In this document: positions 1-63,226 of the stretch, in pieces | How the letters are laid out: each line of letters starts with the position of its first letter | Numbering within the stretch: position 1 is the stretch's first letter | Assembly (NCBI GenBank): GCA_002633005.1 | Contig: NMRA01000002.1 | Location: 2,264,655 to 2,328,654 of the forward strand | Source of the DNA: Phoronis australis | Taxonomy: Eukaryota > Animalia > Phoronida | Direction: 5' to 3' | Length of the DNA: 64,000 bases | Made by a program: the position numbers and the translations under genes | Notes under the pieces: model-generated | What the model was told of the DNA's origin: nothing | Databases searched by the model: none | Seen by the model: the letters and a program-made list of their open reading frames with translations, nothing else

Positions 1-1420
1 CCCAGTCGCCACACGTATGATTTCACAATTTATGATCTCAGTCCCCAACAGATCACCACAATTCGAAACCGTCGTCACGTAATTTTCAGTGTAAATTTGG
101 AGGGGCACCTGAGGCTAAGAGGTGAGCACCTATTTTGCGGGTTGTCCTAAGCAGTAGCCTAGTCAGCATAATAAATAATCTGGGTCCTGTTCCGTTAAAA
201 ACACACATAGCAGCTATTACTTACTCATTAGAACTGGGAAAATAAAATGACAAACGTCTGTTTTGTGTGTACTGTGTTGTCTTTCACCATCATCACCGGG
301 TTTGGTGTCATTTCGGAAACAAAGTCTGTTGGTAACAAGTGTTAATTTCACTCTGACAAAATATTTTGCATTAATAGAAATGGATGCTCTATAGTCACAA
401 GTTGCAAACAGTGCATTGTTATGCTTTCTCACACAAGTGTAACTGTGTGCCGTTCAGGTACAAATAGCAAAGACAGATATCCAGGAGGTAATGTCTTTCC
501 TGGATCACCACCACACGGCCAGTCAAGAAGACTTGATAGTGTTGCAAGATGAACATGTACATTGTACGTGGCTTTTTGTGTCTGTTGCACTAGACGCACA
601 AAACTCGTGGAGGCATGAGATGCTGGCTTTACCTAAGTAACTAGGCATTATAGTTCAACCAGAGTACATGTAAAACATCTAATAACCACTAAAAAGACGG
701 CTGACAGAACACTTGAGGAAAATTTAGCTATTTCAGTCTTTCGATCTCCTGTTCTCTGATTTCGAACTTTGTGGTATTTTGTTTCAGTTGGTGGTTTTAT
801 TTCATGTTATTGTCGGAATCATACACGCCATATCAACACCGTTTCACTATTCTTATCGCACAATTTCTTGAGATATATACTAAATTAAGTTTTACTCGAC
901 AAAGCGTTGCTTAGGGTAAAATGGCGGCTTGAAAACGCCGGCGAAGGTGTATTAAAATTCTGCGTTCTGATTGGTCAGTTAAACCGTCAGTCATAATCCT
1001 GGCGATAGGGCAATTTCCAAGGCTTTGCAAATCTTAGTGTGCAGCAAGCGCTTACCTGCAGGTCAACGCAACACGTGTCACCACGAAGCAATGGTTTTCC
1101 AAGGTGCAACAAAAAATAAAATCAATACAATTGAACACGTCATCACGTCAGATCGAGTGTCACTGGACTCTGGTGTGGTGGAACATGGTATTCGTGCTAT
1201 ATCAGTTTTTGTCTGCGACTTCTATCGAATTTGGTATTTGTGTGGCTGACTCAAAAAAGTTTGCAATATCCACATAAATCGCCAGCGAGAAAGGCTCGTG
1301 GAGTTATGCATACTTGTCTATTGGCTCTAGGAAATTGCTTGTAGACGCAGAAGACTATTGTAAAGTAAACTTTATTGAATTCAGATCATTGACCTGAATT
1401 CAATTTTACATAATAATTAA

Positions 1421-1500
1421 AATAACAATAACAATGACAATAACAATAACAACAATAATAATAACAACAATGGCAATAAACACAAAAGTAATAATAATTA
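1421..1500. repeat. Imperfect (AAT/AAC)n microsatellite; paralogous tract at 23870-23922
   Basis: Visible trinucleotide runs. Confidence 0.8.
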
Positions 1501-2258
1501 CCCTGAAGATTACCAATACTATACAAATACACGGCTTGGACTAGGTTACAATGTAAAAACAATAATTCCTTTTTAAGAATGAAGACAAATGTTTTGAGTT
1601 CGACTAGTTTGTGAATAATGCAAGCTTCACACTCTGACGGTAGAAAATTTCTCCTCAGATTAGCAAGTACAAAGCATACAAAAGGAAGGTGAAGGTCTGT
1701 TTCAACTTCTCTTGCAATATAAATCTGGTGTAAGCATTCTTTTCCTGTGGAGTTATTTCTTCTACCAACTTTCTGTATTCAACTTGTGAGTGTTGCCCGT
1801 GAAATGTGTAAGGATAAATTTAAATGACGGATGTAGCTTGGCAGATAAGTGCAGTTGACAACAGAGGTCGCTCTTAATGTTATAAAAATAGACTTTTCAC
1901 AAATTTTGCATATCAGTTATCCATTTTTGCAACTGTACATCTCTCAATCTTTCTTCAGATTTACTAAGAGATGAATGGTCGTTTTCAACACCCTGGAACA
2001 ACCAAACAGAACCAAATCCAGTTTCAATCTTTAAGGTTTTCACTATTGAACACCTGCTTGTTTCACCTTCACACCGAGGAATAAATGGAAACGTTTGAGA
2101 ATGGACAGAAACACATCATAGGCATTCACATGCGAATGACACAGAGCAATCTGTGCCCATAAATTGAGGTTAGGGGCATGTGCCAGTATCTGAAAGGAGT
2201 AAAACTTCTTTTTAGCGAAAACAATATTTCGAATGCGGCGCACGGCCTAAAGCTACTG

Positions 2259-2542
2259 TATCGTTGACCAAATGGTTGAACATTACGCTGATAATTTACG
2301 TGCGTGAATTTATTAATTCTTGTGAGGGGCGGAAAGTAATTACATTGCACATGTATTTGCGGCGTAGGGATTATTTGCAGCGCAAAGTAACTTTTAATGG
2401 AGTAAGGTAAATACTTTACGCAAATAATTACGTTACACGCCAAATACAATGTAATTATTTTACACCACTAACAAGAGTTAACTTACGCACGTACTGTAAC
2501 TTAATGGCGTAACGTTCACCTACATCTATTTGGTCAACGATA
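2259..2542. mobile_element. MITE with 15-bp terminal inverted repeats (copy A)
   Basis: tatcgttgaccaaat ... atttggtcaacgata is a perfect inverted repeat. Same site as the element at 24665-25110. Confidence 0.7.
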
Positions 2543-2915
2543 TAAAACGCGTGTAGGGTGCAAGTAAATGTCTACAAACTGCTATTTTGTTTACCCAGTG
2601 TAGTGTTGTTGGTAGCAACCATTAATATTATGCATTTGATGCTATATTTAACTTAACATTACCTTTTACTGACTGATAAAAGTGTTTTATTGCGTTCAAT
2701 GTCTTTTATTTGCGAATAAATTATTTTAAAAATGCAGCGAACGTTTTGAGCATGAATCTCCGACTTGCACAAGCGCACTCTGAGATAAGGTCGTCTTAAC
2801 GAATAAATTCATCTAAATTAGCACCATAACATACATGTACAACATGAAACATAGCTGTGCATTTGTTTAGTAAAGTTGTGTTATACAGTATATGTCGATA
2901 ATATACCAGGTTATC

Positions 2916-3488
2916 AAATTTCAGCGCACACGGATTGTCGTTTAACTAAAGCGAAATACCCAAGGATTACGCTGTGACTTAAAAACAACAAAAATACTCA
3001 TGTTTCAGTATAAAATCTCGTCACAATTGGCGAAATGTGTTTACCTAATTCTAATAAATCTGTACCAACCTAAATATGTTTTTATTTTTTACCAATATCA
3101 CTTATTACCGGTTAATTTTTTATCGCAAGTCTTGTTGTTTGCTCCTACTGCATCACTAACAATGTCCACAAACACTGTAAACTGAAATATATTCGTAAAA
3201 NCAAATTTCAGCGCACACGGATTGTCGTTTAACTAAAGCGAAATACCCAAGGATTACGCTGTGACTTAAAAACAACAAAAATACTCATGTTTCAGTATAA
3301 AATCTCGTCACAATTGGCGAAATGTGTTTACCTAATTCTAATAAATCTGTACCAACCTAAACATGTTTTTATTTTTTACCAATATCACTTATTACCGGTT
3401 AATTTTTTATCGCAAGTCTTGTTGTTTGCTCCTACTGCATCACTAACAATGTCCACAAACACTGTAAACTGAAATATATTCGTAAAAA
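2916..3488. other. Near-identical 285-bp duplication across a single n at 3201 (assembly overlap)
   Basis: 2916-3200 matches 3202-3488 with about one mismatch, and the junction is an n. Confidence 0.85.
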
Positions 3489-3525
3489 TTCGCCAAAAAC
3501 AAAGTTTAACGAGGAGATGTCTTAC

Positions 3526-3668
3526 CTGTGTTCTGGAACAGCGGCGGTAAACACAGACCCGAGCATGTGTAACGCGCATAGTATGGATGGTATGCAGAGC
3601 AGGAAATAAGTCCTCAACTGATATTTACCAAATTTCCCTAAGTGTAAAAGTATTTCATCGAAATGCAT
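3526..3668 (-). CDS. First coding exon of a second, tandem SLC22 paralog (remainder lies left of the window)
   Basis: ATG at 3668, [47 protein letters not shown] followed by AG|gtaag. Same 143-nt length and phase as exon 25829-25971. Confidence 0.9.
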
Positions 3669-4836
3669 TTTCGCTCAGCGAACCTCGCCTCGTGGAAAGC
3701 TCTGTCTTAACAGTCCGTTCTCGAGATTGATCGTGAGTGAGTCAAAATAACCGAACGAAATGTTTGCACTTACAGTTTTTGTCAGGGTTCCGGGGGAATC
3801 TTGCACATGAATACATGTAGTTTCATATACACTGTGTGGGGCGTGTAGATCGGATGGGTGACATCTCACGGCCAAGCTAACTTCCTGCAAAAGTTTGCCT
3901 TTATCGACCAAATTGTCTCCATAGGGTCAAATTTTGGGTGCAACTCTATACAAAGGATCAAACCTCGTCAGATATAAAAAGTACCCCTTGGGTTCGGTTG
4001 CTATCGTGACCCTGAGGACAAGCTGTCTACGACTGACGGTCATTCTTCACTACATGAGTGGCTTATCATTTTTGGAGCATCTGAACCGACCAAATATTTG
4101 TTTTGCTGTACTTAATTTCAAAAGTCTCCATCGGGTTATGTATTCGGACTGGGACACCAGTGTTCAGTTTCATTGGGTTAGATATGTGCTGTTTTAAGTG
4201 GTAAAATAACAAGTAAACATTGTATAAGCGACCACAAGTCATGCGATTCGTGCACATAGTTAGCGTTTAGGGCTTTGCGATGAACACATTTCTTCCAAAA
4301 TATCTGTGAAGTTAATGATGCGATACTTCTTGGAGGCAATCAAAATCGCGGTCCGTAAGATTACGATAGTTCAATTATCAAATGCACTTAAACCCTGTAT
4401 GAATATCAAAAATTAAGCTATGTCACTAATTGTACTTAACGTCTTCGATACCTAATTCAACGACTAATCTAAGCTTCATTCCAGTCATTGATATCGGGGA
4501 TAAACATTTATTTCTGGTATGATTAGTACTGTTTGTTTAACATAAGAATGATACTTAAAATAAAAGATACAAAAAATATTTGTAAATTCCTCCCTTCATA
4601 TGTTGAATCTGATTTAGCCTTTTATAGGAATAGAAATAAATTCACACGCCTTTTAGGCGTTTTTTCACTAACCACTTTCCTCCGTCGTAACTCTTCTACT
4701 TCTGTCGATGACTCAGTTACACTTTTGGTAATTTCCGTTATCAGTCGAGCTCTATTGAGCATTTTGAAGTTACCGCCATTGACGTAACATTCGACATTAA
4801 TTCATAGTACTTGTGAATCGAGTCTGAAGTATACAT

Positions 4837-5003
4837 ATAGGTTATCCCACATACATAGGAATACCACTAACACGTCCTATCGAGAAATCATTTCATCTGG
4901 GAATGTCTCAACGAGACCGAATGTTGAGCTGAGACATTCCCAAATGAAATGAATTCGAGATACGATATCGCGGTAGTATACCTATGTATTTGGGATAACC
5001 TAT
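4837..5003. mobile_element. ~167-bp imperfect palindrome, resembling Crypton-type terminal hairpins, at the edge of a ~2.4-kb insertion
   Basis: ataggttatccca.atacatagg..atttcatctgggaatgtctca [acgagaccgaatgttgagc] tgagacattcccaaatgaaat..cctatgtatttgggataacctat. Absent at the paralogous site (~27510). Confidence 0.55.
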
Positions 5004-6559: not shown

Positions 6560-7250
6560 GAAAGTTTATACATTGATCCTATACGCGTTGAATCTGTCGA
6601 GGGAAATACGACCATGTAATAAAGTTTTCCCTATTCACTTCCCGCACTACTTCAACAGTGACCTCTGACATGGAAAGTTCAAAACGTAGGTCAATGTCAA
6701 CTCAACTTCTTTAGCCGGTTCGATCCCAAAACTTTCGGAAAATAGTTTAAAGTAATACAATTATAGCAGTGTAAATAACGCTCAACATACAATCAGGTCT
6801 CAATCGTAACATCTGGAACAGGACTGATAATTATATGGCAGTTCTGTCTCAGTTTTAATTTGCTAAAATATTTTATCGTCTGCAACTCAGGCGCCGATTC
6901 CTCGGTATCTACAATGTCAAATATTGTTGTTATTTAACTATTTTCATGAGATGTTACAAGTTCAAAGTTACCATTGGTGTCATCTTTGTTATCTCTTTTC
7001 AACTAATAAATAAATGTACAACTGTTTTTACTGGAGAAAATTAGCAGCCTAACACGCAAGTGCATACATGTACATATAGGTTGTAATCCGCCTCGTGAGT
7101 GAAGTATTTAAAAATCTTCGGAAAAATGAAAGAAACTTAGGAATTCGAAGCGTATGGGACAAATACAAAACGTACTTCGATTGGCGTACATGAAGTAATA
7201 TCCCACTCGACCTTATTCCGCTTATCGATAGGTGAAATAATGTCTCACGG
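6560..7250. repeat. Interspersed non-autonomous repeat with subterminal inverted repeats; second copy at ~17060-17760
   Basis: Shared core ctgacatgga(a)agtt..aaa.gtaggtcaa..aatagttta at 6665 and 17182. Inverted ends tatcc(c)atacgcg.cgaa / ttcgaagcg.a.ggga.aaat. Confidence 0.65.
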
Positions 7251-8309
7251 TATATTACGGCATGTACGCCACTCTCGTACTTACGTTTTGTGTATATATT
7301 TGCAAGCATAATAGGCAGAGACTACGATTTATTGCATTAATAAACTCGCTGAATCATTTCATGCAATCGGCTTTGCAGTATTTTTTACACCTTTAAAATC
7401 CCAGAACCGGGGATCCAGGTCTCTGCGATATGCCTAACACGCATTCATATCAACCACCAGACATCAGTTATGGAAACCAGAAACACCGCGATAGTCGATA
7501 GTAATGAGTGATCGGTCTTCGGTAAGACCGGCCCAGTGAGTACGATTATAAAAAATCCTTCCCTTGAGTCAGTTTTCGATAGCATAAATAAAAGCTCACA
7601 GTTTTGCAAACTTGATTTGTACAAGGAAAGAAACAATGAGACAGAGTCATAGTTCTATTTCGCAATGTGAAAGTTGCTCATAGTAGCAACATAAAATCAT
7701 GGTTAAATCTCACACCAGTTCTGTCATTTCTTGACCTATCTCCCAGTGCCATTCTTTCAATGTTTTTTTTCTGTGCCCTATCTGTTCTTTATTTCATTTT
7801 GACCATGTCCACGTTGAACCAGCTCTTCTCGATAAAGCCGCGTTGATCTAGTTCAGCTAAATGACATATAAACTTCGCCCATACATGTAGTTAATCGCGT
7901 GATTAAGAGCATTCGGGCAGAGTTGATTAGGCCAGTAGTACTGAACAGTTGTTATTAAATTTCTGCAATCTCCAAATTCATCATGTTGAAATTATGAATA
8001 CCGTACAAGAGTAACTGGGAAGATTACTAGCGGTCACAGTCAAGAAACTCCTGAACGTTCTGATGTGTTGCTGAATGTCCACTTTCCAATCACCGCCGTG
8101 CGTTAATACCGATTTGGGGTTTATTTCAATTTTTGAACATAGCTTCCGAAGGGAACCGGGTCTAGAATCTCGACCAGTTGGTTGAGCCTGTGACATGGTG
8201 CTCAACATTACTTAGTTGATCAAGAATGTTACCAATTTCTGGTGTTGAGCTAACCGGTGCCAATAGTTCTTTATACACTACGAAACTGACGTTTTGTCCT
8301 TTCTTTGGT

Positions 8310-8448
8310 CTACATTATGTTTTCGTCCTCCGCAGACATATCCAAAGCAGAATTAGTGTAAGCGTTATGATCTGGGTCACGTGCCGTGTCACTGGGTACA
8401 AGACATATGTCTTTTCTCTCTCCTTTCAGAGACGCACTCTTGTCAACT
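8310..8448 (-). other. Duplicate of the SLC22 terminal exon, inside a ~1.5-kb duplicated block (7064-8539 ~ 9199-10665), probably the alternate haplotype
   Basis: Same ttttgcag acceptor and 139-nt exon, ending DENIM* versus DENRM*. The block ends at the N gap 8540-8681. Confidence 0.75.
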
Positions 8449-22400: not shown

Positions 22401-25400
22401 AATAAACTAGTACAAGCTAACCTGAGTGACGACAGTCTTTTGAAATATCGACGTGTCATAAACCCATGAAGAACACTTAGACTTATCGGTCAGATTAAGC
22501 GTCAAGTTCCGTTGGAAAATTTCCGCAGCCCATGTGAAGTTGACGGCGGAGTAAACGTTGCATTTGTCGACAGTGCCGTCATCGTTTATGGGGATGAACG
22601 CGTTGATGTAGGCTTGATGGGTCTCGTTACGAATTTGGAACGTGTCTCCGGAAAAACCAGGTATAGCACACCTACAAAGCAAAAGTTGGCGTGAAGTAGC
22701 AGTGCCGGATTGAGGCTTCTGAGGATTCAAATGGAGTTAAAATTACGGAAATCTCAACTACTTAACAGTGGTCATCGTCACAATTGCCCTCCTTGCAACT
22801 TTCCATTGATAGAGCTTCTCTCAGTTGCCCTGAAGGCTCACCTCCCCCCCGGGCCCCCAGTCGCCATACATGTGACTTGAAAATTTCCGGTCTCAGTACC
22901 CCTCCAGATCCCAATTCGAAATCGTCCTCACGTAATTTTTCAATGTAATTCTGGAGGGGCCCCTAAGGATGCGAGCCCTAATTTTGCGGGTTTTACCGCT
23001 AAGCAGCATTCAGTTAGCTCAAAATATAATCTCTGCCCTGTTCCATGAAAAACAAACCTACGAGCGTGGTGTGAATTGGTCTGCGTCTTTTGCTTATCCA
23101 AATGATACGGAGTCATTATGTGTGGACTGTTTCGCGTAAAGTGACTGTCGACTTAAGCCAGTAATCTGGTCTTACGCTTCACGTAGCTATTTCTAAAAAA
23201 GTGATTAAATCTCATATGAATTATTTCTACACTGTGACGCGCCTATAATTTCTTGTCTAAGCCTATATTTCGCAATCAGGAAGGGGGCTTTAAACCAAAT
23301 TTGTGTTTTTTAGGACGTCTTAATTCACTTTCACGAAACAAGCCCCCTACTACCAAGTGTTTGCGAATCTTAGTGTGCCAAAAGCGCGTTCATGCAGGTC
23401 AAGGCAAACATATGTCACCGCGAAGCAATGTTTTTTCAAGGCGCAACCAAAAAGGAATACATTTGAACACGTCATCACGTCAGATCAAGTGTCACTGGTC
23501 TCTAGTGCGTTGGATCTGTACATGTAGGGCCTATAGAAAATGGTTTTTGTGAGTACTTTAGGGGGGCAATTTTATTTTGGTGTTTTTTAATTCATTTATT
23601 AGAGTGTTTTCAAAATCTAAAAAGTTCCCACATAATCATGGTATTCGTGCTATATCAGTTTTTGCCTGCAACATCCACCGAAATTGGTATTTATATGGCT
23701 GACTCAGAAAAGGTTGCAATATCCACATACTGTAAATCGCCAGCGAGAAAAGCTCATGGAGTGGTGCATACTTTTCTATTGGCTCTAGGAAATTGCTTGT
23801 AGACGCAGAGGAGTAAAGTAAAGTAAACTTTATTGAATTCAGGTCAATGACCCATAATTCAATTGTACATAATAATAATAACAATAAAAACAATAATTAT
23901 GATAATGATAATGATAATAATAGGTGCGCTGAGTACAATACACACACGGCTTGGACTAGTTGCAGTAGGTTACAATTCTAGCAACAATATTTATTTTCCT
24001 TTTTGTGAATAAAGGCAAAGGTTTTGAGTTCGACTGGTTTGTGAATAATGCAACCTTCACGCTATGTCGGAAGAAAATCTCTCCTCAGGTCATCAAGTAC
24101 AGGGCATATGAAAACAAGGTGAAACTCTGTTTCAACGTTGCCTGTGTTAAAAATCTGGCATAAATGTTGTACTGTGGCATTATTTTTTCTACCCAGTATC
24201 TATATTGTGGCCTGTGACAAATTGAAATGATGAGTGTAGCTTGGCATATCACTGCGGTTGACAACAGAGGTAGCTCTTAATATTGCAATACAAATAACAT
24301 TGTCTCGAAGGGTGCATATCAGTTAGCCATTTCTGAAACAGTACATGTACATCTTTCAATCTTCCTTTAAATTCACTAAAAGATGAATGGTCGTTTCCAA
24401 CACCCTGGAACAACCAAACAGAACCAAATCCAGTTTCAATCTCTAAGGTTTCCACTCTAGAACACCAGGTTGTTTCACCTTGAACTTCACGCCGAGGAAT
24501 AAATGAAAACATTTGAGAATGGACAGAAATATGCAGGCATTCAGATATTGATGGAATAGAGCCTCCTGTGCCTATACATTGTGTACATTGAGTTTAGGGG
24601 CATGTGCCAGTATCCCAAGGAGTAAAATTTTTTAACGACTGCAATATGGCTCAAGGCAGAAAACTATCGTTGGCCAAATGAATGAATGTTACGTCCGTAA
24701 TTTAATTCTTGTTAGATGCGTATAATAACTACATTGTATGTGCGCGTAAAGTAACTTTTAACGGCATAAAATAATACTTTACGCTGCAAACAATTACTTT
24801 ACGCTGAAGAGAACTATTTTCCACCTCAAATAATTACTTTACGCCGTTTAAAGTTACTTTACGCTGCAAACAACTACTTTACGCTGCAGAGAAATATTTT
24901 GCGCTTCAAATAATTACTTTACACCGTTTAAAGTTACTTTACGCTGCAAACAATTACTTTACGCTGCAGAGAAATATTTTGCAACTCAAATAATTACTTT
25001 ACGCCGTTTAAAGTTACTTTACGCTGCAAATAATTACTTTACGCCTCTATCAAAAATTAACTGATGGACGTACTTTAATGGCGTAACGTTCACCTATTTG
25101 GCCAACGATATAAAACGCACAGGTACAGTAAAACTTAATGTCTACAAAGTGCAATTTTGTTTACCCAGTGTCCTGTTGTTGATAGCAAGCATTAAGATTA
25201 GGCAAATGAGTTCCACTTGATGCCAAATTTACGTCCGTACTTAACAAACCTTTTACTGGCCAGACAACGCGTGGTAAATAGTATTTTATTGCGTTCAGTG
25301 ACTTTTATTTGCAAATAAATTATTTCAAAAATGCAGCAAAGATTTTGAGCATGAATCTCCGACTTGCACAAGCGCACTCTTAGATAAGGTCGTCTCAACG

Positions 25401-32940: not shown

Positions 32941-32983
32941 TACATTTGTGTCCGAAGCGCGGTTTGTTGCTCCTAAAAAAACT

Positions 32984-34841: not shown

Positions 34842-36084
34842 CTCTCCCCAAAGTCCTAACACTAATAATATTACTGAAACATGAGTCCAATAGTCCACTC
34901 ACAAAAAGACCTATAAATCCAGACGAGCTGGCGGCTTCCACACACGAGTAGACCTTCGCAGGGTGGGGTGTCGGGCAATGTTTGAGATGATCGAGTTCTC
35001 GTCTGGCGGGGCACTTATACTCGCACCGTGTTCAGGCAATTCCTGAGCATTCTCAACAGCGCCAGAACCATTAGAACGAGCAGTCCCACGTTCCCACGAG
35101 TCCACACTGGAGTCCTCAGGACGAACACGGTATTGACGCTACACTATCTCATCCACGTTCCGACGAACAGTTCTCAAATCGACTAGCACAACTTCTGGCA
35201 TAGGTTAAAGGTCCTCAGTGTATGACGAACAATCTCTCCGTTCAACCACGAAGTTCCAGAGCCAGCGGCATTGGCCAAGATCATGTCACCACGAACAAAA
35301 ATGCGGCATTTCGAATGCTTATCATGACAGTCCTTCTGTTTAGCCTCTTTGTCCAGAACACGATCCATAAGAGAATTGCCTGGAAACACCATATCGATAC
35401 GCTCACACAAACGACGCTTCATCAGTAACTCTACAGGAGATCTGCCCGCAAAAATGAGGGTGTTACGGTAGTTTAGCAAAAAACAAACGATACCCCTTAG
35501 TGTTGACGTCACCACCAGACATCTTGCTTAAAGCACTCTTGACTACCATAACGGCACATTCAGCGAGACCATTAGAGATCGGGTGGAAAGTAACAGAGGT
35601 ACATGTAACCTGTCTGATGCAATCAACGCCACAAACTGTTTAAACTCAGTGCTAGTGAATGCAGCACCATTGTCGGACACGACACTCAATGGTAAGCTAC
35701 ATGTATGAGTAGCAAACGAGCAACGCAGCTTGTCAATGATTGTTTTCGATGACAACGACGAAAGAGGATACAAATCCATCCACTTATTTAGAATGAGCAT
35801 CGATAACCAACAGAATATGAGTGTTCATGAAAGGATCTAAATGATCTATAAGAATGCGCGTCCACGGTTGAGTAGGCCAGATCCACGGTTGCAGCGGGGC
35901 CTTAGGCGGGCTCAACGCTCCTTCTGACATCCGGAGCAATGACGAACGTGATTCTCTATGTCCTCATCGAGCTTAGGCCACCACACAACTTCGAGCATAG
36001 GCCCAGATGCATATAATGATAGGAAGTGCCCAGATGCATATAATGTAACCCACGCAGCATGTCATCACGACCTGAATGGGGAAC

Positions 36085-37082: not shown

Positions 37083-37254
37083 GGAACAGTAACACGAGAC
37101 CCCCACAATAACATGCCGTTCTGCTCATTCAACTCTGTTTTGCGCATTGCAAACAGCTTTAAGTCATCCGACGTACATGTATCATCTGGCCATCCAGTCA
37201 ACTCATAACGCATAACGGTAGACAGTACAGGGTCCGTGTCAATCCATCGCTTAA

Positions 37255-38181: not shown

Positions 38182-40357
38182 TCCTCTAAAAATCAAGCAT
38201 TTTTCTTGATTCCTGAAGTATTATCCAAGAAAAAAAAGAAAAGCGGAGAACGTGTTAAACATGAAGAACTGCTCGAACTCACGACCTGGCGGATACAACG
38301 CGCGCGCTTGACCACTGCACCACCACAACTTCACTCGTAAGCAGTTACTAAGAGACCTATTTGTTTACGGTCCACAGCGTTGGCGCGCAAAACCTACTTC
38401 TTTTTTGTAATGCTTGTTATACTTTTTATATTTTGTGCAATCAGTTCGTAACAAATTTGTTGTATTTAGAATAGTCTTCAATTGTCCAAAAGACCAAATC
38501 CGTTTTTTGTGTTGGCATTAATGACGCGATTGCTTTGGAAATTGTCTTAAGTTAAGGTTTGACAAGGAGAGAATTATGAGTTTTCTGAGTGATTCATTAA
38601 GGCTTCCACATCTTACCAGCAGCTTCTGTTTTTTCATCGTTACTCAGACACCATTTTCTTTAAAAATGAAGTAATTTTCTTCATTGCACAGTGAAGCAGG
38701 CGACGGAAATGGAGTCGTTGTGCCCAGCGCCACTACCGCTCGCCTGGGATATCGCGGGAGAGGCTATACTTAGCCATAGTTCCGTTACCGTTGCGCCGTG
38801 TTCCGAATTCGACACTTGAAATTGGATCTGAGCCCCCCCCCAAAGACACTAAAACTGCACACATTTAAATTTTGTTTCAGTCGTATAATGTTGATTACCA
38901 GGGTTAATTAATAAACTCAACAATTCCCTGCGCTCTTGCTGTTTTATTTTTTTGCGGCAGCCACGGGGGAGGGGGCGGTCCCCGTGCCCCTACCCCTAAA
39001 TCCGTCTATGGGAACAATAACACGAGACCCCCACAATAACATGCTGTTCTGCTCATTCAACTCTGTTTTGCGCATTGCAAACGGCTTTAAGTCATCCGAC
39101 GTATCATCTGGCCATCCAGTCAACTCATAACGCATAACGGTAGACAGCACAGGGTCCGTGTCAATCCATCGCTTGAAGGCGACCTTTTCTCATGTCATTT
39201 TTAGCGAAAACAAGGTCCGAGACCCTGGCAATGCGTTTAGCAGCTTGGTATATGTTCAAATGTATAGGGTACTATCGGTGAGCATCTTTCTCTTTAACCC
39301 AATGGTTTCCTTTTGGGGCGCCTGCTTAGAAATAATTTGACTTTGAACTTTTCGGGCCACATATGATACTCCCTCGTCTTCGGCCAGGTGACGCGGGAAC
39401 CCTAGGCACAAATACTCTGGTATTTTTGTCTAAGCCAGTCTTGTGCAAATCGCGGTGCACAGAGTAGCAAACTTCCGTCTCTCAGTGCAGCTTGGTCGAA
39501 TACTGTGTAATTTACATGTATGTCGCATCCCATAGTCAGTCTATTAAATAACAAGAGTGGAATTGCACAAGCGAAGATCTCCGTTGCTTTACGTAGCATT
39601 ACTACCTTGAATATGAGCAAGTCTGGATCAAGGTACATGTACAGTATAATCAAACGTCCACACTTGTGTTTTAACCAATCTACAGAAATTAAGATGCACT
39701 TAGTTCTGCGGTAACTATACAATCGCGTCAGATTCTTCGAACCAAATTCTTGTATCCCCGAAAAGCATAAAAATGTCAACAAATGCAGATTGGTTTGAGG
39801 AACTTTAAGTACATGTACTAGTCCTCGAGAGCAGCAGCCATGCAGCGGCAAGGTGGGGGTCAGCCGATTTTCACCAACTGTGACACATAGGTACTCCAAT
39901 GGGATCTATAAACAGTGGTAAAATATATCCCCAAAATATTACGTTCTACCAAAGCTATTAGCTCAAAACATATTTTACGGCTTCTCAGGGAATGTTTTCT
40001 GATTTTTACTGTTTATTTTTTCCTTGAATGAAAGCTATTGAACTATTATTCACTCGACGTTGTTTAAATGGTGCCAATAGATTATTACATAGATGTCTTA
40101 AAAAAGATACCGATTTTCCACCCTCGTTTAGTAGTTTTACTGCACTGCCCCCGTTATGCCATTTTAAGGTTATGTTTAATACACTACGATACCAAATCTG
40201 TCCGTTCTGTCATGAGAATAAAACTTGGCCAAAATATTGACAAAACATGTTTCTTTCATTGTATTAAATAAAAACCTTGTCAGACAGTCTATTACTTATA
40301 CATTTTGGCACCTCAAATGTACTAAAATGAGAAATTTTCAAATATTTGAGACCGCTC
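38182..40357. other. Alternate-haplotype duplicate of 36245-38180, joined by n at 38181
   Basis: Collinear and nearly identical, with an extra ~250 bp at 39223-39475 and small indels. Confidence 0.8.
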
Positions 40358-48900: not shown

Positions 48901-51900
48901 ATATATTGGGCAAAATACAAGCGTACTATTACGAGCGCAAAATTATGAGCAAAAAATACAAGGGTAAATTTACGCGCGTACAACTGCTTCGGAGCTCACG
49001 TGATCTACATAATAATTTCTCATTGTCGTAAAGCGCGAGCGAAGTCTCGGTCGTAATTACCAGCGTATTTCTCGTGACACCAGTGCTGTAGTGGGGCGTA
49101 GGCAGACGTAGGCTCAGCCAACCACCTTTTGGCTTTTGAACGTTGCGCCTACGCACCGTAAGTTACGTTCAGTGCTCAAAGTAATACAGTGGCCTTTGGG
49201 CGCCTACATACCTCTAATTTTACCACTGCACTCCTCCCCCAATGTGATCGAGGTTACCATGATATAACCCCCTCCCCCGTCAAGTCTCTAATTGCGTCAC
49301 TGTAGCCAACTCCTGTTTTTGGAATTACCAACAGTTCGTTGGAGATTCGGTCTTGGGGCAAACTGTCTTTTTATGATCGTAAGTTGCATTTGCTGCAATT
49401 GTATTCAGCAGTGAAATAAAGTACGCCCTGAATATTTACGTAGCTAACTACGCCAGACGAGTTAGGATAGGGCGGGGAAAATGTGTGTTCATAAGGGAGG
49501 CCTGGCAGTCATTTTCCGTAGACAAGTCCACCCAATGAAACGCCCATGAGCGTTTATTGGGAAAATAATACCGAATAAATGTCCGTGGGCGTTTATTTGG
49601 TGTTACAACTTCTGGTGTCAAGTGTCCAAATAGTGGGCCGTTTATTCGGAAAATTTCCCTTAAAGCCCACTCAGCGTCAACTTTTTGTAACAAATTCAGT
49701 TTTGTGGAGCATTTATTACTGGGAACACAAACAAAGTGTGGAGGAACTATGCATAAAATTTAAAATCACAGTTTTAAGTAAAATATGCTAAAGTCGGCAA
49801 ACCTATGACTCCGTTTAAAATCCCCCGTTTCCGAATAAACGTCCGGGCGTTTATTTGGTGTTACTAAAACGCCTGGAAATGTTCGCTGTTCAAATATACC
49901 CCCACTGAAAATACCGACAGCAGTTTTACTGGCTAAAACGCTTGCGAAAACCCTATCAAAGATGCAGCCACCAGGCTTTATTTGACTAAACGCAAATGCA
50001 GGTAGGCCTACAGTGTATATCTGCAGTTCCAGGAAAGCTATGGATACGTAAGACTGTCTAAAATGTTACCATGATGCAAATATGTCATTTATGTGCTTTG
50101 CACTTTAATACATCGCACGTTCACTTTACACCAGACAAATCGCCACCCTTTCAACCAACTTGTGTTTGTTCAAAAGAATCGCAACATGAAATTGACCCTG
50201 TCGCAACAAAATGGTCAGACTGTGTACGAAAACAGGCCCATGGAAAAACGTCAAAGAAAACCGTTTATACCAACTCGGGCGTATTTTTGGGGAACGGGGA
50301 GGGGCATACTTTCCGAAATTCTAAAACATATGAGGTTTTGTTAAGCAAACATTAGTGTTTTTTTAAAGAAACACATCCTTTTTAATGTATGTAATTGTAT
50401 ACACTGGTAAGAGTTTTATTATTCCATACTTATTTCACATTTGACAAACACAGTTTGTTAAAACAGTTATTCTTAATATTAGTTATCAACAAAATCATCA
50501 AATATCTCGTTGAGTGATAGTCATTTGACCGAAATCGCAACTCCCAAAATATAATGGCTCTCCAAAATAATGCTTTACTTCAAAACACATTACATACGGG
50601 TTATATAACGAGTCCTTCAGATTTTCAAGACATGCTAACAGTTGTCGAAAATACACATATGGTTGTACTTCTTGAAAATTTTCCAAAATACGCCAGTTGA
50701 CGCACTTGCTTTGTGGTGAGTCTATATTTTCGGAAATTCCCGAAAGTTGTCCTTTGACGTGTACGATTGGTGACGTCGACCTATTCGTGACGTATTCACT
50801 TTACAAATTCTGTAAAATGAACCCGGGAATGGCTCACAGAGTCATTCGAAACTTTATAAAAGTTACGATATCATGGTTTATATACTTTATTTTGCGAATT
50901 GTGCTGAGAACGACAGAGAAAGTTTACTTTGTCACAAGGAATTTTCCGCGAATTGTGTCTTTTAGCAAGAAAGACGCTTCTGGAACCACGGCAGTGAGTG
51001 ACAAGTGGTCAGGAGAGGCATCTGACGCGTCTAAAACTATTCAGAAAGCAAAAGTTGATACTAAATTAATGGAATCTTTTGTCAGGTGTGAAGTCGAATG
51101 CAAAATTGGAAACTCGATAACCATCTACATGTACAAAGAAGACGCTAAATGTGAAAGAGACACTTCGGAAGAAGTGTCCAGCGATTCCACAGAGAACGAC
51201 GAGAAGGTAAAACAGAATGTCTATGAAAATACGGATCTAACAAATTTCCATAAAGATCCAATTGATGTCAATGATGCTGAAGGGAGAAAAGTGCATCTGA
51301 ACATTAGAAACAAACCAGACGACGTCGAAGAAGTTCAACAGGAAGTCATTCAATTGTCACGTACCACTGGGTTCGCTGATGATGCTTATGGTAAGGAAAA
51401 AGTGTTGAAAACCGAAAGCAACCCCGTTCAAAATGACCACTTAGAAGACGTTACACTATCTGATTTCACTAAGACAACTGAGCCTACAGTTTCGGAGGAA
51501 GTGGACCCCATTTCAGCAGAGAAAGGTGAGAACACACATCTACCAGATGTAGACAAAGACATTATTGGTGACCCTGGTGACAGAGCTAGAGAAGTAGTGG
51601 AATTGGATGGTAGAAACAAACCAGGCGACGTTGACGTTGTTAGACAGGAAGTCATTCAGCCGTCAGATATCACTGGGTTCGCTGATGCGGCTGATGGTAT
51701 CGAGAAGGTCCTGAAATCCAAAAGTAAGCGTTGGAGGCGCCACCAAGTCGACCGAGTCTGCAGATTCAGAGGAAGTATGCCACATTTCTGCAGACGAAGA
51801 TGAATTGGTAAAGAAGAATGTCCATGAAAAGACGGACCTGCAACAGTTACTGGCAAGTCAATTCCCTATTATTACACCCGACGAAGAAGAAAGTTGTATC

Positions 51901-54900
51901 GAAATACGAAATATTGAGATCATTCCCGCAGACGCCAAATTTTGTGACATTCATGGTTTGCCTTACGGTGCAACATTTTTTCTATTGAATCAGCTCCTTC
52001 AGAAAACATCTGCCGCAGCTCTTCACGTACATGTATGATCGACAGTGGAGACAGAGAAGTCGGTAAACTGGAAGGTAGAAAAAAGCCAGGCGACGTTGTA
52101 GAAGTTCGACAGGAATTCATCCTCTCGTCAGGTATTGCTGAGTTCACTGACAATGATGACAGTAAGGAGAAACTCATGAAATTCGAAAGTAAATCCGTTG
52201 GAAGTGGTCACTTAGAAGACACCATAATGTCTGATTTCAATGATTCGACTGAGCCTACAGTTTCCTCTGCGATTGGGAAGACGTTTACACAGGACACACG
52301 ACGCTCCGCATCTGAGACTCTGAGCAGCAAATCAGGCAGCGTCGAAGGTATAAGCCCAGAAGATGCAAATCTGCACAGCTGTGCCAAGTTGTCCCTAGAT
52401 GCCGTTTCTTCTCATACTGCAAATCTTTTAGACTACACGTTTATACCTGAAACTGGCCAGAAGGACAATATAAAATTTCAGGGCAGCGGTCTGTCCAACA
52501 AACGTGTAGATACATGTATGCGAATCGACGACATTAAACCTTCTGTCACCACCCGGCCTCACACTTAGATTTCGTTTGGGACGTTGCATTTTCCAAAGAA
52601 TATTGAAATGCCCGTAATCAGTAAAGATAAAATTAATGTCACAAATCTTCAAGCTAAAAACGAACCAGAGGAGGTTGAGGATGCTCGCCTAGAAGACAAT
52701 AGATTGTCGCCTTTTGCACCCTTGCTTCAGTACGATTTTTGTTTTGCTGATGGGGACAATTCAATGGACATTGACTTCGACGGGAAATGTAAATCAATTA
52801 ATTATAATCAAATTAATAATAAGTCATGCATCACTGAGGGCATTCGTTCAGAAGACAAGAAGTTTGTGTACATGTACATGTATGTGCCTCTTAACGACGT
52901 TTCTTCTGTTTCAGAGGACACCCAGAGTATTGGTGATTTTACGGATAAATCAAATATTGAAAAACGAGAAGGACTTTTCAAGCGTTTGAAATCACGACTC
53001 AGACAAAATCGTCACGCGGTCAAGGACTGTGCTACTTCCTCTTCGAAGGCGCACAGTTTAGCCTCACGATGGCGGCGTTTGATGTGTTTTAGTGCTTGTG
53101 AAGACGAAAACACCTATGTCAGATTCTACGACTGATGGTCACGGACTGAAGCAAAAGCTCAATCTTGAGCGCCTTTTAAACACTTTTAACGTTTTTTATC
53201 TTAAAATGTACTGCACATGCGTGTATGTTTTGCAACCATCAAGTCTCTGCTGTGCACACATATTGAATGTCAATTGCACGAGGACAGGCAAAATAAATGA
53301 AAGTGCAGCTGCAAAGTGTATTTTAAGTGTGCTTAAGCTGAAAGCGCGTTGAAGGCTCTCTAACTCAGAGTTTAATGAAACACTTTTCTCTTGCCGCCTA
53401 TCTAGACTGACACCACAAGGCATGTTGCACAGCCATCTAGACACTGCATGTCAAGGTGAAAACTGACCAGACAATGCAGATCATTCGGGGCTTTGAGTCA
53501 GTAAAGAGAGTGCCATTAATTGTATGTATTTAGAGGCATGCATAACGCAGTCTCGTCGTTATAGAGCGTAGTAGCCAGCACACTAACTAGGGACAATTGG
53601 AATATCTGATCGCGTCAAAATTCCAAAATTTCGATAAACGCATATTGATTAACGACCCGGATTTAACTATCGTGTTTACTTATTGTCCACACAGTATGAG
53701 CGGAGAATAATCTGTTCAAATCGTCGATAATAGTTCCATAATATTACACCATTGCTATTTCGCGTTATAATATTGCCAACTTTTCCAAAATTGTATCATT
53801 TCACGCTAACAGAAGATGGAATCTAAACCCTTGTGATGGTACAAACTACATGTAACTGTCCGACCGAGGGAAAGTGAACGTTGGAGCCAGATTATTAGAG
53901 TTAATAAGGTGTTTTAGGTCGTTCATCTTAGGATTGTATAGGTGGATAGGAATAACCCCTTTATTAATACAGCAGCCTATAAAGTGAAATATCTTACAAA
54001 AAAGGCTCAACATACCTTTTTAAAACTAATGGCATTGTCCAAGATCTCGATGGTAGGCCTGTTGAGTGAATTCCTTTCTGTCGAACTGATGAAAAGGAAG
54101 CGCCAGAAAACAGATGTACCTGACCGCATCTAAGCATCGACCGTGGACTAACTTTAGGGTGTAAGAACTGCTTGAATTTTCTAACGTTTTGAATTTGGCA
54201 TTCAGTAAATTTTTCCTTTAACACCGAGAATCAACTCTTGCGTTGAATTTTCAATATTGAAAAAATCATGCAGCGACCCCTAGTTTAAAGAGGTAAGTAC
54301 CTAGTATTCATTCTCATTAATGATTCGTTTTAATTATTTATCATTGAGAATGAATAGGTGTTTATGGGCTGTTAAAAGCTCACTGGAATCTTCAGATGTG
54401 TTATTAGAAAATAATGCACATAAAAGAGAAGCTTATATCGGGATTTTCCGTAGATAAGCGCACGATGGGCGTTCATTTGTTGTTACAACTTCTGGTGTCA
54501 AGTGCCCGAGTAGTTGGGCGTTTATTCGGAAAATGCCCTCTTAAAGCCCACTCAGCGTCAACTTTTTGCCACAAATTCAGTTTTGTGGAGCATTTATCAC
54601 TTTTAAAAACGAACAAAGTGTTGGCGAACTATGCATTTATACACATAAAATTTAAAAACGTGAAATACATGAAAGCCAAAGTCGGCAAAACTATGACTTC
54701 TTTTAAAAGCCCCCTTTTCCGAATAAACGCCCGGGCGCTTATTTGGTATTACTAAAACGATTGAAATTTTTTTTATTTTCCAAATACACGCCCATGGGCT
54801 TATCTACGGAAAATCCCGGTACTGCAGTTCAGTGAATTGGCAATCTGGAGCGCAAAACTTGAGATTTAACAATGAAACTTGAGGAATAGTATGAAAGCAA

Positions 54901-57900
54901 GGTAACAAAATTCTGACATATTTAAAATGAAATTCGCCGCGACACTACATATATGCTTCAGGCAACGTCACAACGTAATCCTCGTCCCCTGCAACTGACC
55001 ACGACTTTCGCTGGACATCCTGGTAATGCCGGGTAAGGTCAATGTGTTGATTGTCAGTGAGTGGTGGAGAGGGGCTGCCGTTTGTCTCTGTACAAGCCTA
55101 GTGCAATGATGTGGTCAAATCTCGGAAGGGTGAAACGGAGGGTCCAGGTTTTGAAATTAGTCAATTTAGTCCGCTACAGAAGGTGAACCGTCCGTTCTCC
55201 TAATACGATATATACAGTGATGGAGCTTTTCAATAAATCGCACGACAACGTCACCATTGGTTTAATCAACTACTCCTGTCTTAATCGTCATCTTTTCCCC
55301 GTCGAGTGATGACATCGTATGTGAACGCTCCCTAAGCCGAAAATGACAAGCTCCTGGCCGTCGACTTCCTTGTTTAGAAAGTCAGGTAAATTGATTAGCC
55401 TAACATAAACTACAGTAGGTGTCGCATCAGTGCTTCGCATTTAGCGAGAATTACCCGAGATTATAAATTTGTTGCCGATAACCAGCGGACATCAAACTAC
55501 TGTGACGAGGGGACCAATATATTGCGCCAGTTGGGACGGTAGAGCTGTAGTGGGGCGAAGGCGCACGTAGGCGCAGCCAACTACCTTTTGGCATTTGAAC
55601 GTAGCGTCTACTCACCATAAGTTACGTTCAGTGCTCAGTGAGATACGGTGGGCTTTGGGAGCCTACTAATTACTGTACCTCTAATTTTACCACTACAGCA
55701 CTGCGCGACACCACACTAAACAGTACACAAGGGTCCGTTTTATCAAAGCTCGTAATATTAGTACGGTGAGCACAGTTCATTAAAGTGTCTCGTTACTACT
55801 GTCGTTAAGCATGTACAGTCTACGGGGTAATTTAGTATCGTTAGTTACTGCGAAACACTTGTATAAAAACGCATCGTCGCATTTTCAATAATGCAGCTAC
55901 TGTCGTCTTACATGCACCTGTGATAGGACTTACGATAAAATGGACCAACGAACTCGAACTTTTAAAAAGCTGACATAAACAGAGGAAACGTTTGATGACT
56001 TACACGTGGTTAATATCCAGACAATTGATAGGCCCAATTTAACAAGGCGTGACGTGCCTTTCTTGTTGTCAAAGGATTTCTTCTTTTTATCACCAACTTC
56101 TTTTATTTTCTGAAAGGCAGACAGGTACAATTGTTAAATTATGGAACATTGCCTACAAATGTCAGAAGTCGTAACTTTTGCTAAAATAAATGAAACGAGC
56201 ATTGGGGAGAGCGGGATTGGATACAAGCTACATGTCTGTGAGCACTGTCTTAAGCCATGCCAAAATATACTATCCCTGATCAGAACGTTTTCAAGATTGC
56301 AACACATTCACAGATTTGTTCTTTTAAAAAGCCTGAAGCATATCTTTCAATAACTTCATTTATAGTGGGACATCTGCAAATGCCTTTGCCGCCGTAAGAT
56401 CTTACGGTGCAAAAACTGGTCGCGAGGACGTGATAACCGGTGACAATGGTCAAGAAGACAGGAATGTCGATGACGTAGATGATACGGAAGACATAGTACG
56501 GATGATGGTGGCGACCAGCATTGATAAAGGCGAAATGATATATAATGTCAAAAGCAATGCTTCTATGGGTAAAATGTTTATATTGATAAGGACATGAACT
56601 ACAACGGGAAGAAGATCGTTTCTAAAAACTATCGGTCTCTTCACACCAACCTCTAGCCTTTTTAAATTTGCATGACTTTTCGGTCGATCGTTACTCACGC
56701 CATCTTCAGGGTTGCCACGTTCTTAGAGGACCACACATTCATGGGTGTTACTTTCCGCTGGTACAAAACAGGGTAAAAACCCCGAAAAGAAAGGTCGCGC
56801 CAATGTAGATAGGCTAGAGGTTGGTGCAAGTAGACTGATAGATTTAAGAAATGATGCTGTCATGTGACCACCACCTCAAAGCGATTTTAAGACGTTACTA
56901 TGGTAATGGCGGCGATTGTGGTTGAGACGATGACGAAGAGGACGGTAATATGAGCATGATGATTGCAACGACGATGACAGTGATATTGTGGAAGGTGATG
57001 ATATGAAAGTGATAGTGGTGACGATATTCGTGGTATTGTGGACGACGCTGATACATGGAGGTGATGACGACCACGATGGCCATGATATTGTGGACGACAA
57101 TGATATGATGGTGATGAGGGAGGACACGGGTGATGGTGACGATGATGGCAACTATGAAGATTGTTCTTCTTGTCAATAGCATTTTCTTACCTTCAAAACT
57201 ATAAGAATAACCACACAAGAAACGCCAAGAATGACGTCCCAGTAACTGAAATAAAGAAATTCCATAACACGTTTTTCGCCATTTCATGGACATTTCATTG
57301 TAAGTTATCGTCCAAGGGTTTCCAATTAATCTTAGCAGTTGTACAAATATGCCAATCAAATTCTGAAACCAATTAGTTTATACTGAACTAAAATTGCACA
57401 ATAACATCCTTACTTCGTTTCCGTTATTCGTCGAAAGAGTTCATACACACTGGTATGGAACATTCTAGGAAGTTTCCTGATGCCTGACATTTTCTGAAAG
57501 TAAATAATCTTGAGAAATGTATATTTTGGCAGTATTTTAAATGGAATACTACAAACAATGCCTGTTGGACTTAAAGTTCGCGAATAAACACCTGTTCAAT
57601 TAGCCTTCCTGACATAACTTTTCGTAACAGTGAAACATCACTTTAAACTTAGCATAGTATCTGAAACTTTCATATAAATTCAATCAGCCATTTCTAAGGA
57701 TTATGTCCAGCCAAATTTGGGATTTTTATAGAGACTCTCATGACTCTGTCCGAAGGATAGCATTGATCCTTCATAGGTATTCATATACATGATGTCGTCA
57801 TCGATTGTTTACAAAACGCATTTCAAACAACTTTACCTTGATTTGTCCCCACGAGATCAACAAAGCCGCTGCTGATATGAAGGCTGACAGCACGGGATGT

Positions 57901-60900: not shown

Positions 60901-63226
60901 GGTTTGAAACGACATAATTTGCTAAGTGGTGTAAAAAACAAATCCAGCATAAATTTTCTCGTCTGAGCTGAATCTTCATTTTAGAAAACTAAAGAATACG
61001 TTACCACACCGTTTGGGCCTTAATTCGAAGGTAAAAAGAAATCTCAAACTGTTACTGTTAAACTAATGAACTAAAGTTATTATGCACATCTGTTTTGTGT
61101 CCATAATTAATAAATTTTGCAAGTGAGCAGCTTATCCGATTTGTATTCCCATCATAAAAAAATATTTTACATGAAGATATTGATAGACTCAATATCTGTT
61201 CGTATTGTACATTGTAAAACGAACTGCTGCCATGCTTTGTCAGGTTTTTTAACTAAAATTAGACAAATATTTTCTTCGAAAATCGTAGTTGGGCTCCAAT
61301 TTTCACATCTTAAATCCGATAAAGCTTGAACGACGGACAGACGGTGAGAACGTTATTGCTTCCGTCCTTTTCGACGAGCAATACGTAGCAAAAAGATTTG
61401 AATTATTTTCATGGACTTGATTTTGCTGTGTTTTTGACATACTCAGCCTCGCTGATGGTATTTCGTTTCGTGTCTGTTACGGTACAAGTAAATTAATTTT
61501 ACATTTAAAGCCCTGGGGAGAACAACTGCAACTCAATCGACCGTAACAAGCATTCCAAAACGCTTATGAGAATAGTTTGTGTGACAAACATCAAATACCT
61601 TGTATGAAAAGTTTTAAAAATGGAATAATCTGCAATTGAAATATCATCAATTTTAATTTGTGCAGCCGGGAACAATGAATTAAAATTAATGATCGCCCCT
61701 GTTTTGCTGTCCGTCTTGTTGAATTCTTTACCGCTCTGTGTGATTAAAACAACTACACGAACCAAATTAGCAGGCAACTTCAGGCACAGCACAGGCAACG
61801 CTTTGAACATGAGCCATTTACCCTACATTTGGGGTTGGTCAATCTCAATAAATTGTGAAGTATTTTCCTTAGTCGTCGATGACTTCACTGTTCTTCGTAT
61901 TGACGGGAATAGAATCCTAGCTTCCGTTTTCAGCCAGCCAAACAGGGCGAATTGTAATTTAAATATAGAAGTAAATGTATAAAACTTGCGAAAACGATAT
62001 ATCTCACAAGTCTTCGCGACTCTTCGCGCCTTATTACCAGCAAAACAAGGGATAGCTTTTCTCGAGAGTGCCTTGCACCTGCGGATACCTGCGTGTATTT
62101 ATAAACTGTTCATGTTCCCTTAGAGCAGTTCCTATGCAGCATACATGTACATGTATATGTAATTACGGATTGTGTACATGAGGCTGGAGAGGTGTAGAGT
62201 TACAGTCAGTTAGAAAGCAATAAAAGATCTCCGGTGGTTATCGACTTTTTGTATGTACTAGTTCGCAATGAAAATAATGAAATTCCTATTTACATGTACA
62301 GAGTATCACAACTTGAGATGTTAACACAAAGTACACTGAAACACGAATGTCAGAGAATGATTTTTTCTGAATTAGTATTATGTTTTGTATCAATAATAAT
62401 ACTAGGGTTTCCTTTCCAAGGCATAGCACTGAAAAATGTCACAGTTGACCTAATCACACCGAAACGACCAGTGGACAAAAATCTTCATGCGTTGCACAAC
62501 TAAATGTATTCCAGCCTTCGCATAATGACCCGCATATGATTTGCTTTTTAATGAATGACAGTGGATAGAATACAGCTACAATAGCAGAAAACATGGAAGT
62601 TGTTCTCAACCTTGGCATATCCATCTTGTTGAAATATGGTTGATACCCACTTTGCAGTTGCACAGCTGGCTTCGTTTTTGTTAAAACTCAGGTTTCTTTT
62701 TGCGATTAGCGTCAGCTGTGGCTAGTTTTCATACTTCGGACGGCAAAAATTGGAATTTCCCAAAATAAAATAATTCCCCAGTAAAACTATATCCTGATAC
62801 TCTTATTTGAAAATATCTTTGTTCACATTTTTAGGGTCACCCAGTACACATTTACATGTACCTTTGATAAAACTTACTTTGATGAGACACACAATAAACT
62901 CGATTCTTTCTCAAAATAGGTTTATTAGGGTTGCGTGCGGTATGCTATAGAACGACCAACCTCTCAGTAATGCATGATAATAGGAGATCGTAAACATTGT
63001 ACCGGCTTTGCACGCTACATATGGCGAAGCGTCGACCTCAGTCTAGGACTTTTTTACCTGTATGTAGGAAGCCAGGTAGTTATTGGCACCTTTCTTTTCA
63101 GATTCTCTACGGAACAGGCTTCTTTAGACCATGTGACTGCACTCTTTGCCACGGCACGTGCTCTCTTATTCAATACTTCTCGCCTTCTTTGAAAACGGGG
63201 CACATCATTTCCAGTTATCTCTATAG
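42938..63226 (-). CDS. SLC26A11: SLC26A11-like sodium-independent sulfate/anion transporter with STAS domain; 16 exons found, start-codon exon not located
   Basis: Exons: 63058-63226 (KVPITTWLPTYR), 60567-60669 (DIIAGLTVALIVVPQSLALA..LPPQ), 58608-58812 (YGLY..GSSKDVTLGPTA), 57837-57922, 57414-57493, 57191-57245, 56004-56109, 48208-48389, 46947-47019 (ILESVAIGK), 46480-46591 (IDANQE..ASFSR), 45630-45826 (YYIPSAALAAVII), 45313-45371, 44848-44979, 44615-44711, 44143-44276 (VVLDFTHVSNIDFTG, STAS), 42938-43156 (stop). All GT-AG and phase-consistent, about 668 codons. The symbol indicates the closest subfamily, not proven orthology. Confidence 0.93.
50817..53135 (+). pseudogene. Nested antisense gene or pseudogene in the SLC26 intron: acidic protein with an N-terminal hydrophobic segment and three internal repeats
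   Basis: ORF pieces 50817-51803, 51805-52038, 52035-52568 and 52584-53135. The repeat RNKPxDVxxVxQExI..xGFADxxxxxEKxxKxxS occurs three times. Two compensating frameshifts (or an intron at 51724-52002) and an in-frame TAG at 52566. Confidence 0.65.
54438..54819. mobile_element. Tc1/mariner-pogo-type MITE with TA TSD; second copy at ~49510-49880
   Basis: TA-tcgggattttccgtagataagc ... gcttatctacggaaaatcccgg-TA. Internal sequence is collinear with 49510-49880. Confidence 0.8.
56615..56855. mobile_element. MITE with ~45-bp TIRs embedded in a GAT/GAC-rich low-complexity tract (56430-57160)
   Basis: atcgtttctaaaaactatcggtctcttcacaccaacctctagcct ... aggctagaggttggtgcaagtagactgatagatttaagaaatgat. 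Confidence 0.65.

Follow-up and report, generated by a model that had tools for sequence, protein, structure and literature searches.

Why does a single eight-base word, TACATGTA, recur throughout a 64,000-base stretch of the genome of the phoronid Phoronis australis (contig NMRA01000002.1, positions 2,264,655 to 2,328,654, forward strand; hereafter the window)? A preliminary description, made from the letters alone, had read the word as the scar left at a TA target when a Tc1/mariner-type transposon is excised, and had taken such scars to be a dominant source of insertions and deletions (indels). Here we show that the excess is real and that the word is born by insertion at TA. It probably represents excision footprints, which make up a small share of all indels.

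Results

The excess of TACATGTA was confirmed. The window contains 43 copies, while Markov models of orders 0-3 predict 1.6-2.5 in 64,000 nucleotides; the earlier count by eye (about 40 versus about 2) was accurate, and all ten coordinates it named do carry the word, including two copies at 62142. After masking the second copies of five near-identical duplicates, the enrichment over the Markov background held, with 39 copies versus 1.43 expected in 59,594 bases. This corresponds to an approximately 25-fold enrichment and a density of about 1 per 1.5 kilobases (kb), and places TACATGTA first among the 136 TA-N4-TA words (runner-up: 20 versus 7.3). In the masked window, the five-base class TAC(A/T)GTA was weakly enriched (19 versus 10.8 expected, P=0.015), with at least one copy being a chance match (the splice acceptor at 58811), and TACA(G/C)TGTA was found 4 times versus 0.87 expected (P=0.012). 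TACA(A/T)TGTA (6 versus 1.02) stood at the top of 512 words, with an uncorrected P of 7e-4 that was not significant after correction for the 512 words.

To what extent do alignments reveal a gain of letters? Seven presence/absence pairs had been proposed, between near-identical blocks or between paralogues. Six are exact gains at a plain TA (Table 1), among them both pairs of the TA-CTG-TA variant (23728 versus 1275 and 2254 versus 24665), each an exact +5 gain of TACTG. The seventh, 27889 versus ~9795, is approximate only, since its gap comprises 5 bases plus substitutions in an alignment of 72% identity. Alignment gaps also revealed +6 gains with one mismatch at 2520 and 54667, that is, decayed forms. 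The longer state keeps a TA on both sides of the gained letters, so that the target duplication is retained. The difference between 3812 and 26100 (Table 1) reflects either one site with two repair outcomes or a single scar minus one base. The TACTGTA at 2254..2260 abuts one end of an inverted-repeat element with TA flanks.

The longer state is derived at five sites: two in a dead integrase, two in a multicopy gene (weaker evidence) and one in a short repeat. First, 402 relatives of the integrase were detected at E 0.001, of which the best 150 of 402 were compared. Across 35698, the window carries two extra residues in 161 of the 163 in-frame integrase alignments. The spacing between motifs at this site is 12 in the window versus 10 in 102/102 motif-matching homologues (48/150 unmatched), and at 35600 it is 10 versus 8 in 51/52 motif-matching homologues (98/150 unmatched). 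A word-index protein search with the integrase fragment gave no matches.

Second, the gene-family copy at 50820..53135 holds TACATGTA at 51126, 52028, 52511, 52869 and 52875. No RNA run was listed as holding the stretch itself; the runs used were chosen by species label, and read layouts comprised the best-supported rows (21 further rows lay outside). At 52566, 41/41 and 53/53 RNA reads differ from the window copy, which has a stop there and is broken. At 51126, 10/19, 11/21 and 4/8 reads from three RNA runs and one DNA contig are six bases shorter; at 52511, the same applies to 6/11 and 3/6 reads (the third run was without coverage) and to two contigs. The family reaches roughly 10-18 times single-copy depth and has internal repeats of ~130 bases. 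Neither a Pfam domain nor a word-index protein homologue was found for it, and an Atlas match reached 0.78 only.

Third, one genomic contig of the high-copy repeat at 55541..55705 shows the gain after 55603. The depth of this contig is 70, and the summed depth of the repeat is ~25,000 versus ~45-50 in single-copy bins. Thus, integrase homologues, gene-family copies and the repeat contig independently bear out a non-templated insertion at TA, as previously proposed.

Sequence context was analysed after removal of 5/43 copies (three duplicates, two stacked), which left 38 sites and 76 half-sites. Position -3 is A in 41/76 half-sites (background 31%, P=3e-5), position -2 a pyrimidine in 45/76 (background 50%, P=0.07) and position -1 a purine in 56/76 (background 51%, P=5e-5), resulting in the overall pattern A-Y-R-TA-Y-R-T. 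Among the five-base words, A occupies -3 in 60% of 40 half-sites. The flanks therefore resemble Tc1/mariner targets, in keeping with the character assigned earlier. At -3, A agrees well with the targets CAYATATRTG for Tc1 and RCAYATATRTGY for Sleeping Beauty given in passages of PMC2577343.

The inserted letters are constant while the flanks vary, which bears on a first alternative: replication slippage or short tandem duplication near GTAC/TGTACA, generating (TACATG)n. The two stacked doubles (52869, 62142) are what slippage could produce, and 12/38 sites match a 6-base duplication either exactly or with a single mismatch. However, such a duplication fits exactly at 1/38 sites only (24342) and with one mismatch at 11/38; the other 26/38 need two or three extra changes, all reaching one and the same word, and no other TA-N4-TA word comes near the count of TACATGTA. 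Because exact duplication covers a single site, slippage is not the general source. This explanation, which the preliminary description had itself listed as a possible refutation, is largely refuted, and we give it next to no weight.

How much of the indel variation do the scars explain? We analysed 175 gaps, 13 in near-identical pairs and 162 in paralogues, excluding the redundant pair 7294-7835. Exact footprints account for 8/175 gaps (12/175 with one mismatch), namely 2/13 in near-identical pairs and 6/162 in paralogues, so the claim of a dominant indel source fails. They represent 4/9 six-base gaps and 4/15 five-base gaps (one ambiguous), compared with 0.5% and 0.2% at random positions. 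That is, scars predominate among six-base indels, yet form 5-7% of all gaps. The scar is a signature and not the main engine of indel diversity.

As stated before, the traced SLC22, SLC26 and Ig exons are free of TACATGTA. The purifying selection read into this was not demonstrated, since the mapped exons (3,671 bases) hold 0 copies with 1.7-2.5 expected (P=0.08-0.19, by hand; SLC22 exon limits are rough), which is not significant. Dead reading frames, 3,117 bases in all, hold 7/43 copies versus 2.1 expected (by hand and post hoc).

One-mismatch neighbours of the word number 47 versus 33.7 expected, an excess of ~13 against ~38 exact copies. A long steady process would leave near-equal numbers, so the few decayed copies would mean that the scars are mostly young or that old ones were erased. 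Between near-identical blocks, three sites are common and three are not (one of them in a 19-base gap; one common site lies at a block edge), and among sites with an alignable paralogue 0/5 are shared intact. These three observations suggest recent activity, in line with the earlier proposal.

A selected protein-binding site of the Irx homeodomain type, or CpG decay of CACG/CGTG, might also multiply one word. TACATGTA is a preferred Irx site and an abundant promoter motif in Phytophthora (passages of PMC3520976), and the scarcity of one-mismatch copies could mean maintenance. Yet the word arises by insertion rather than substitution, occurs inside dead reading frames and, judged by the alignable paralogues, is not conserved in place. 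CpG is not depleted either: observed/expected ratios of 0.79-1.20 across sixteen 4-kb bins are flat, with no obvious link to scar counts (no formal test). We thus consider this origin very unlikely, while some scars may secondarily be used as binding sites.

The window is animal DNA with 40% G+C, and its features are collected in Table 1. It contains five N joins flanked by near-identical duplicate blocks, which differ by 99 substitutions in 4,228 aligned columns (2.3%) and are likely the two alleles of one individual, that is, uncollapsed haplotypes. The blocks are probably assembly artefacts, so gene models there would be wrong. An old tandem duplication (1-4774 versus 22856-27477, 72-82% identity) lies upstream of the SLC22-like gene and suggests a second SLC22 paralogue beyond the left edge. 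For an exon of the SLC26A11-like gene, the nearest match among the best 120 of 309 is 58% identical. The open reading frame (ORF) at 32987-33925 has a signal-peptide-like start and a hydrophobic tail. A short ORF piece at 8722-8848 (minus strand), in a duplicated block beside a 142-N gap, presumably resembles the start of a THAP zinc finger; Pfam gave no match for it.

Table 1. Scar words, gains at TA and other features of the window.
Feature	Position	Strand	Observation
TACATGTA field, 43 words (39 masked)	665..62860	.	window-wide spread, word counts
Stacked double word TACATGTACATGTA	52869..52882	.	two overlapping TACATGTA copies
Second stacked double	62142-62155		TACATGTA at 62142 and 62148
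TACATGTA	37174..37181	.	near-identical block with plain TA at 39102, +6
TACATGTA	39634..39641	.	near-identical block with plain TA at 37460, +6
TACATGTA	24342..24349	.	paralogue 6 bases shorter at 1936; sole site where exact tandem duplication would also fit
TACATGTA	2832..2839	.	plain TA in paralogue at 25431, +6
TACTGTA	23728..23734	.	plain TA in paralogue at 1275, +5
TACTGTA	2254..2260	.	plain TA in paralogue at 24665, +5
TACAGTA	2884..2890	.	plain TA in paralogue at 25476, +5; absent from the preliminary description
TACATGTA	3812..3819	.	paralogous position 26100 is TACTGTA
Dead Gypsy-type integrase remnant	35200..36000	-	rve E 5e-4; stops and frameshifts; TACATGTA at 35600, 35698
Broken copy of multicopy transcribed gene family	50820..53135	+	intronless; inside SLC26 intron, antisense to SLC26
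High-copy short repeat	55541..55705	.	one genomic contig with CATGTA after 55603; window copy plain TA
SLC22-like gene	about 12-23 kb	-	weak MFS_1 matches
SLC26A11-like gene	44.1-63.2 kb		holds the 50820-53135 copy in an intron
Single-exon Ig-domain ORF	32987-33925	-	313 amino acids; weak Ig match, E 0.048
Near-identical blocks	2915-3487, 7065-10665, 14158-15296, 36246-40369		each abuts or spans an N join; one repeats an SLC22 exon

Discussion

We consider that the TACATGTA excess represents the excision footprints of a TA-targeting element of the Tc1/mariner superfamily with CA...TG ends, both overhangs of which were filled in, and put the probability of this reading at about 0.75. Such an element would insert at TA in the context A-Y-R-TA-Y-R-T and duplicate the TA. 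Its transposase would cut two bases inside each end and leave a CA overhang on each flank; as these overhangs would be unable to pair, end-joining would presumably fill both and ligate them to TA-CA-TG-TA. The rarer words TA-CAG/CTG-TA and TA-CAG-TG-TA would arise if a CAG...CTG end were cut three bases in; a single CAG...CTG family, cut at varying positions, may thus generate the +5, +6 and +7 words. The events would be germline and mostly recent. Since a scar regains TA, a second hit is possible, and would give two stacked copies. In known systems the cut in the non-transferred strand falls inside the element, by two bases for Tc1 and Tc3 and by three for Sleeping Beauty, and after end-joining these bases stay behind between the TAs (passages of 10.1101/659086, PMC7827188 and PMC8151067).

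Several points weigh against this reading. A TA-CA...TG-TA inverted-repeat element was not found in the 64-kb window, whether searches were anchored on TA-CA/CT or on any TA, and among the 277 window ORFs of at least 62 amino acids Pfam revealed no Tc1/mariner transposase. The TA-flanked elements that the window does contain end in GGTT, TCGT or CCGG, not in CA...TG, and the scars expected of them, computed for CCG ends, are without excess in the masked window (TACCGTA 8 versus 4.8, TACCGGTA 0 versus 0.5). About 39 scars without a resident element in the window are odd; for a rice species pair, passages of PMC4423477 give ~2.6-2.8 Mariner insertions per excision. Position -1 is G in 29/76 half-sites (background 22%, P=0.001), a departure from the Tc1/Sleeping Beauty consensus, which has A. 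The commonest Tc3 footprints are TACATA and TATGTA (passages of 10.1101/659086), and these +4 words show no excess in the masked window (40 versus 40.1 expected). The polarity evidence from the gene family has its own limits, since about half of the covering reads have the shorter form at 51126 and 52511 and the rest are ambiguous, 3/5 of its TACATGTA sites lie outside the best-supported rows, and a majority among copies is not a rooted tree.

The footprint taCATGta is on record for Tc1, where it is termed rare (passages of PMC3520976, citing Eide and Anderson 1988). The premise that Tc1/Tc3 excision leaves this word, which the preliminary description called established, is therefore correct as to its existence and overstated as to the rule, given the words that Tc3 favours. 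Because taCATGta is rare for Tc1 and the +4 Tc3 words are not enriched here, the repair bias would be unlike that of the worm.

The CA..TG-ended source element that had been predicted was not recovered in the window; what the inverted-repeat search returned was one scar matched to another, or families whose ends differ. Across the 277 ORFs and a further 71 short ORFs over sites, Pfam identified neither a transposase nor, apart from the integrase remnant, any host domain at a site. A 250-base-pair (bp) difference at 39225-39474 and a 415-bp difference at 26241-26655 had no inverted ends, and no element-occupied copy of a scarred site was seen among the best-supported rows of the DNA and RNA read layouts. 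TA-flanked inverted-repeat elements at 4838-5002, 2259-2542, 24665-25110 and 54437-54821 show that this genome does have TA-targeting families.

The copy at 24665-25110 has an internal array with periods of 20 and 80 bases, and a further TA-flanked inverted-repeat element is located at 17079-17705. At 54437-54821 and 49451-49904 there is a miniature inverted-repeat element flanked by TA, with CCGGGATTTTCCG at its ends and roughly 200-fold depth; it represents a Tc1/mariner-superfamily type whose ends differ from those of the presumed scar source. A 150-base repeat of roughly 500-fold depth, with CAGTGCTG...CAGCACTG inverted ends and without TA flank, was found at 49079-49233, 55541-55705, 19640-20028 and 20424-20510, and is possibly a hAT-type miniature element. 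As a source, the high-copy CAGTG...CACTG repeat (49079-49233, 55541-55705) is unlikely because neither its window copies nor the loose-end consensus shows a TA flank. A metagenome scan with a repeat motif returned 0 loci.

Two other origins must be weighed against these findings. Minos-like elements are cut four bases inside the element. An element with CATG at both ends and cut in this way would leave complementary sticky ends that religate nearly always to TA-CATG-TA, which would account for the dominance of the +6 word, the lack of a +4 excess and the constant insert. However, a TA-CATG inverted-repeat element was not found in the window, and the +5 CAG/CTG gains would require a CAG-ended element anyway, and one CAG...CTG family can give +5, +6 and +7. 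We regard this variant as improbable.

Alternatively, no transposon need ever have been resident, if a nuclease or repair route cut R-TA-Y and wrote CATG; synthesis through a hairpin or snap-back would be an example. The G bias at -1, the missing source element and the number of scars, which far exceeds that of candidate elements in the window, all fit this idea. But snap-back synthesis would copy the flank and vary, whereas the insert is constant here, and A at -3 fits transposase target logos; furthermore, a 64-kb window cannot prove the absence of an element genome-wide. A transposon-free route is thus improbable too.

How does an origin by transposon excision compare with known systems? 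The Tc1/Tc3 footprints of Caenorhabditis elegans, in the passages on them, share with the window the same word, a TA duplication around CA/TG and the target bias for A at -3 and T at +3. They differ in that TACATGTA is rare there and TACATA/TATGTA lead for Tc3, whereas in the window the +6 word is dominant, without any excess of the +4 words. Here, moreover, the scars are heritable, about one per 1.5 kb, with G favoured at -1 and the source element not found in the window. In C. elegans, end-joining accounts for >99.9% of somatic empty sites, while the germline uses homologous repair (passages of PMC13148408); heritable scars at such density would imply much germline end-joining.

The canonical footprints of Sleeping Beauty are TACAGTA/TACTGTA (passages of 10.1101/659086, PMC7827188 and PMC8151067), which four exact +5 paralogue gaps (one ambiguous) and the -3 logo match. 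Yet the +5 class is minor here, and the same passages do not list the +6 word for Sleeping Beauty. Work on genome-wide excision polymorphisms in rice likewise attributes some small-scale genome variation to the excision of DNA transposons. According to passages of PMC4423477, however, they are heterogeneous (8/94 perfect, on average 18 bp deleted) and lie beside resident elements, in contrast to the one precise word described here. In Phytophthora, motif-1 is the same word, TACATGTA, and is very abundant: three species together have it upstream of 12,070 genes. It is read there as a transcription-factor site; passages of PMC3520976 raise the footprint idea and dismiss it, and contain no indel test.

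The single footprint is thus already known. For a genome-wide field of it, a full-text literature search that covered few subscription papers or supplements found no account, and as a whole word TACATGTA appeared in five papers, all of them oomycete or fungal promoter studies. Three papers on lancelets (PMC4284660, PMC12862219 and PMC13577491) do not mention footprints of this kind. What is described here is a field that is real, insertion-born and probably made of footprints.

Excision is normally invisible once the element is gone. A dense, precise scar would make excisions countable and datable, and sequence alone would then suffice to test germline transposon traffic and its repair route (end-joining with fill-in versus homologous repair, as in passages of PMC13148408). 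A +6 scar leaves the reading frame intact and can therefore add two residues to proteins, and the TACATGTA 'motifs' that emerge when promoters are scanned may be a by-product of mutation. A bolder view, which we hold to be unlikely, is that of a hit-and-run germline mutation process far commoner than resident elements suggest, or needing none. If it were true, a precise, frame-keeping six-base insertion, made about once per 1.5 kb in recent times, would add residue pairs and seed homeodomain-type sites, and the scars could be used as a clock for earlier transposon activity in many animals and perhaps in oomycetes.

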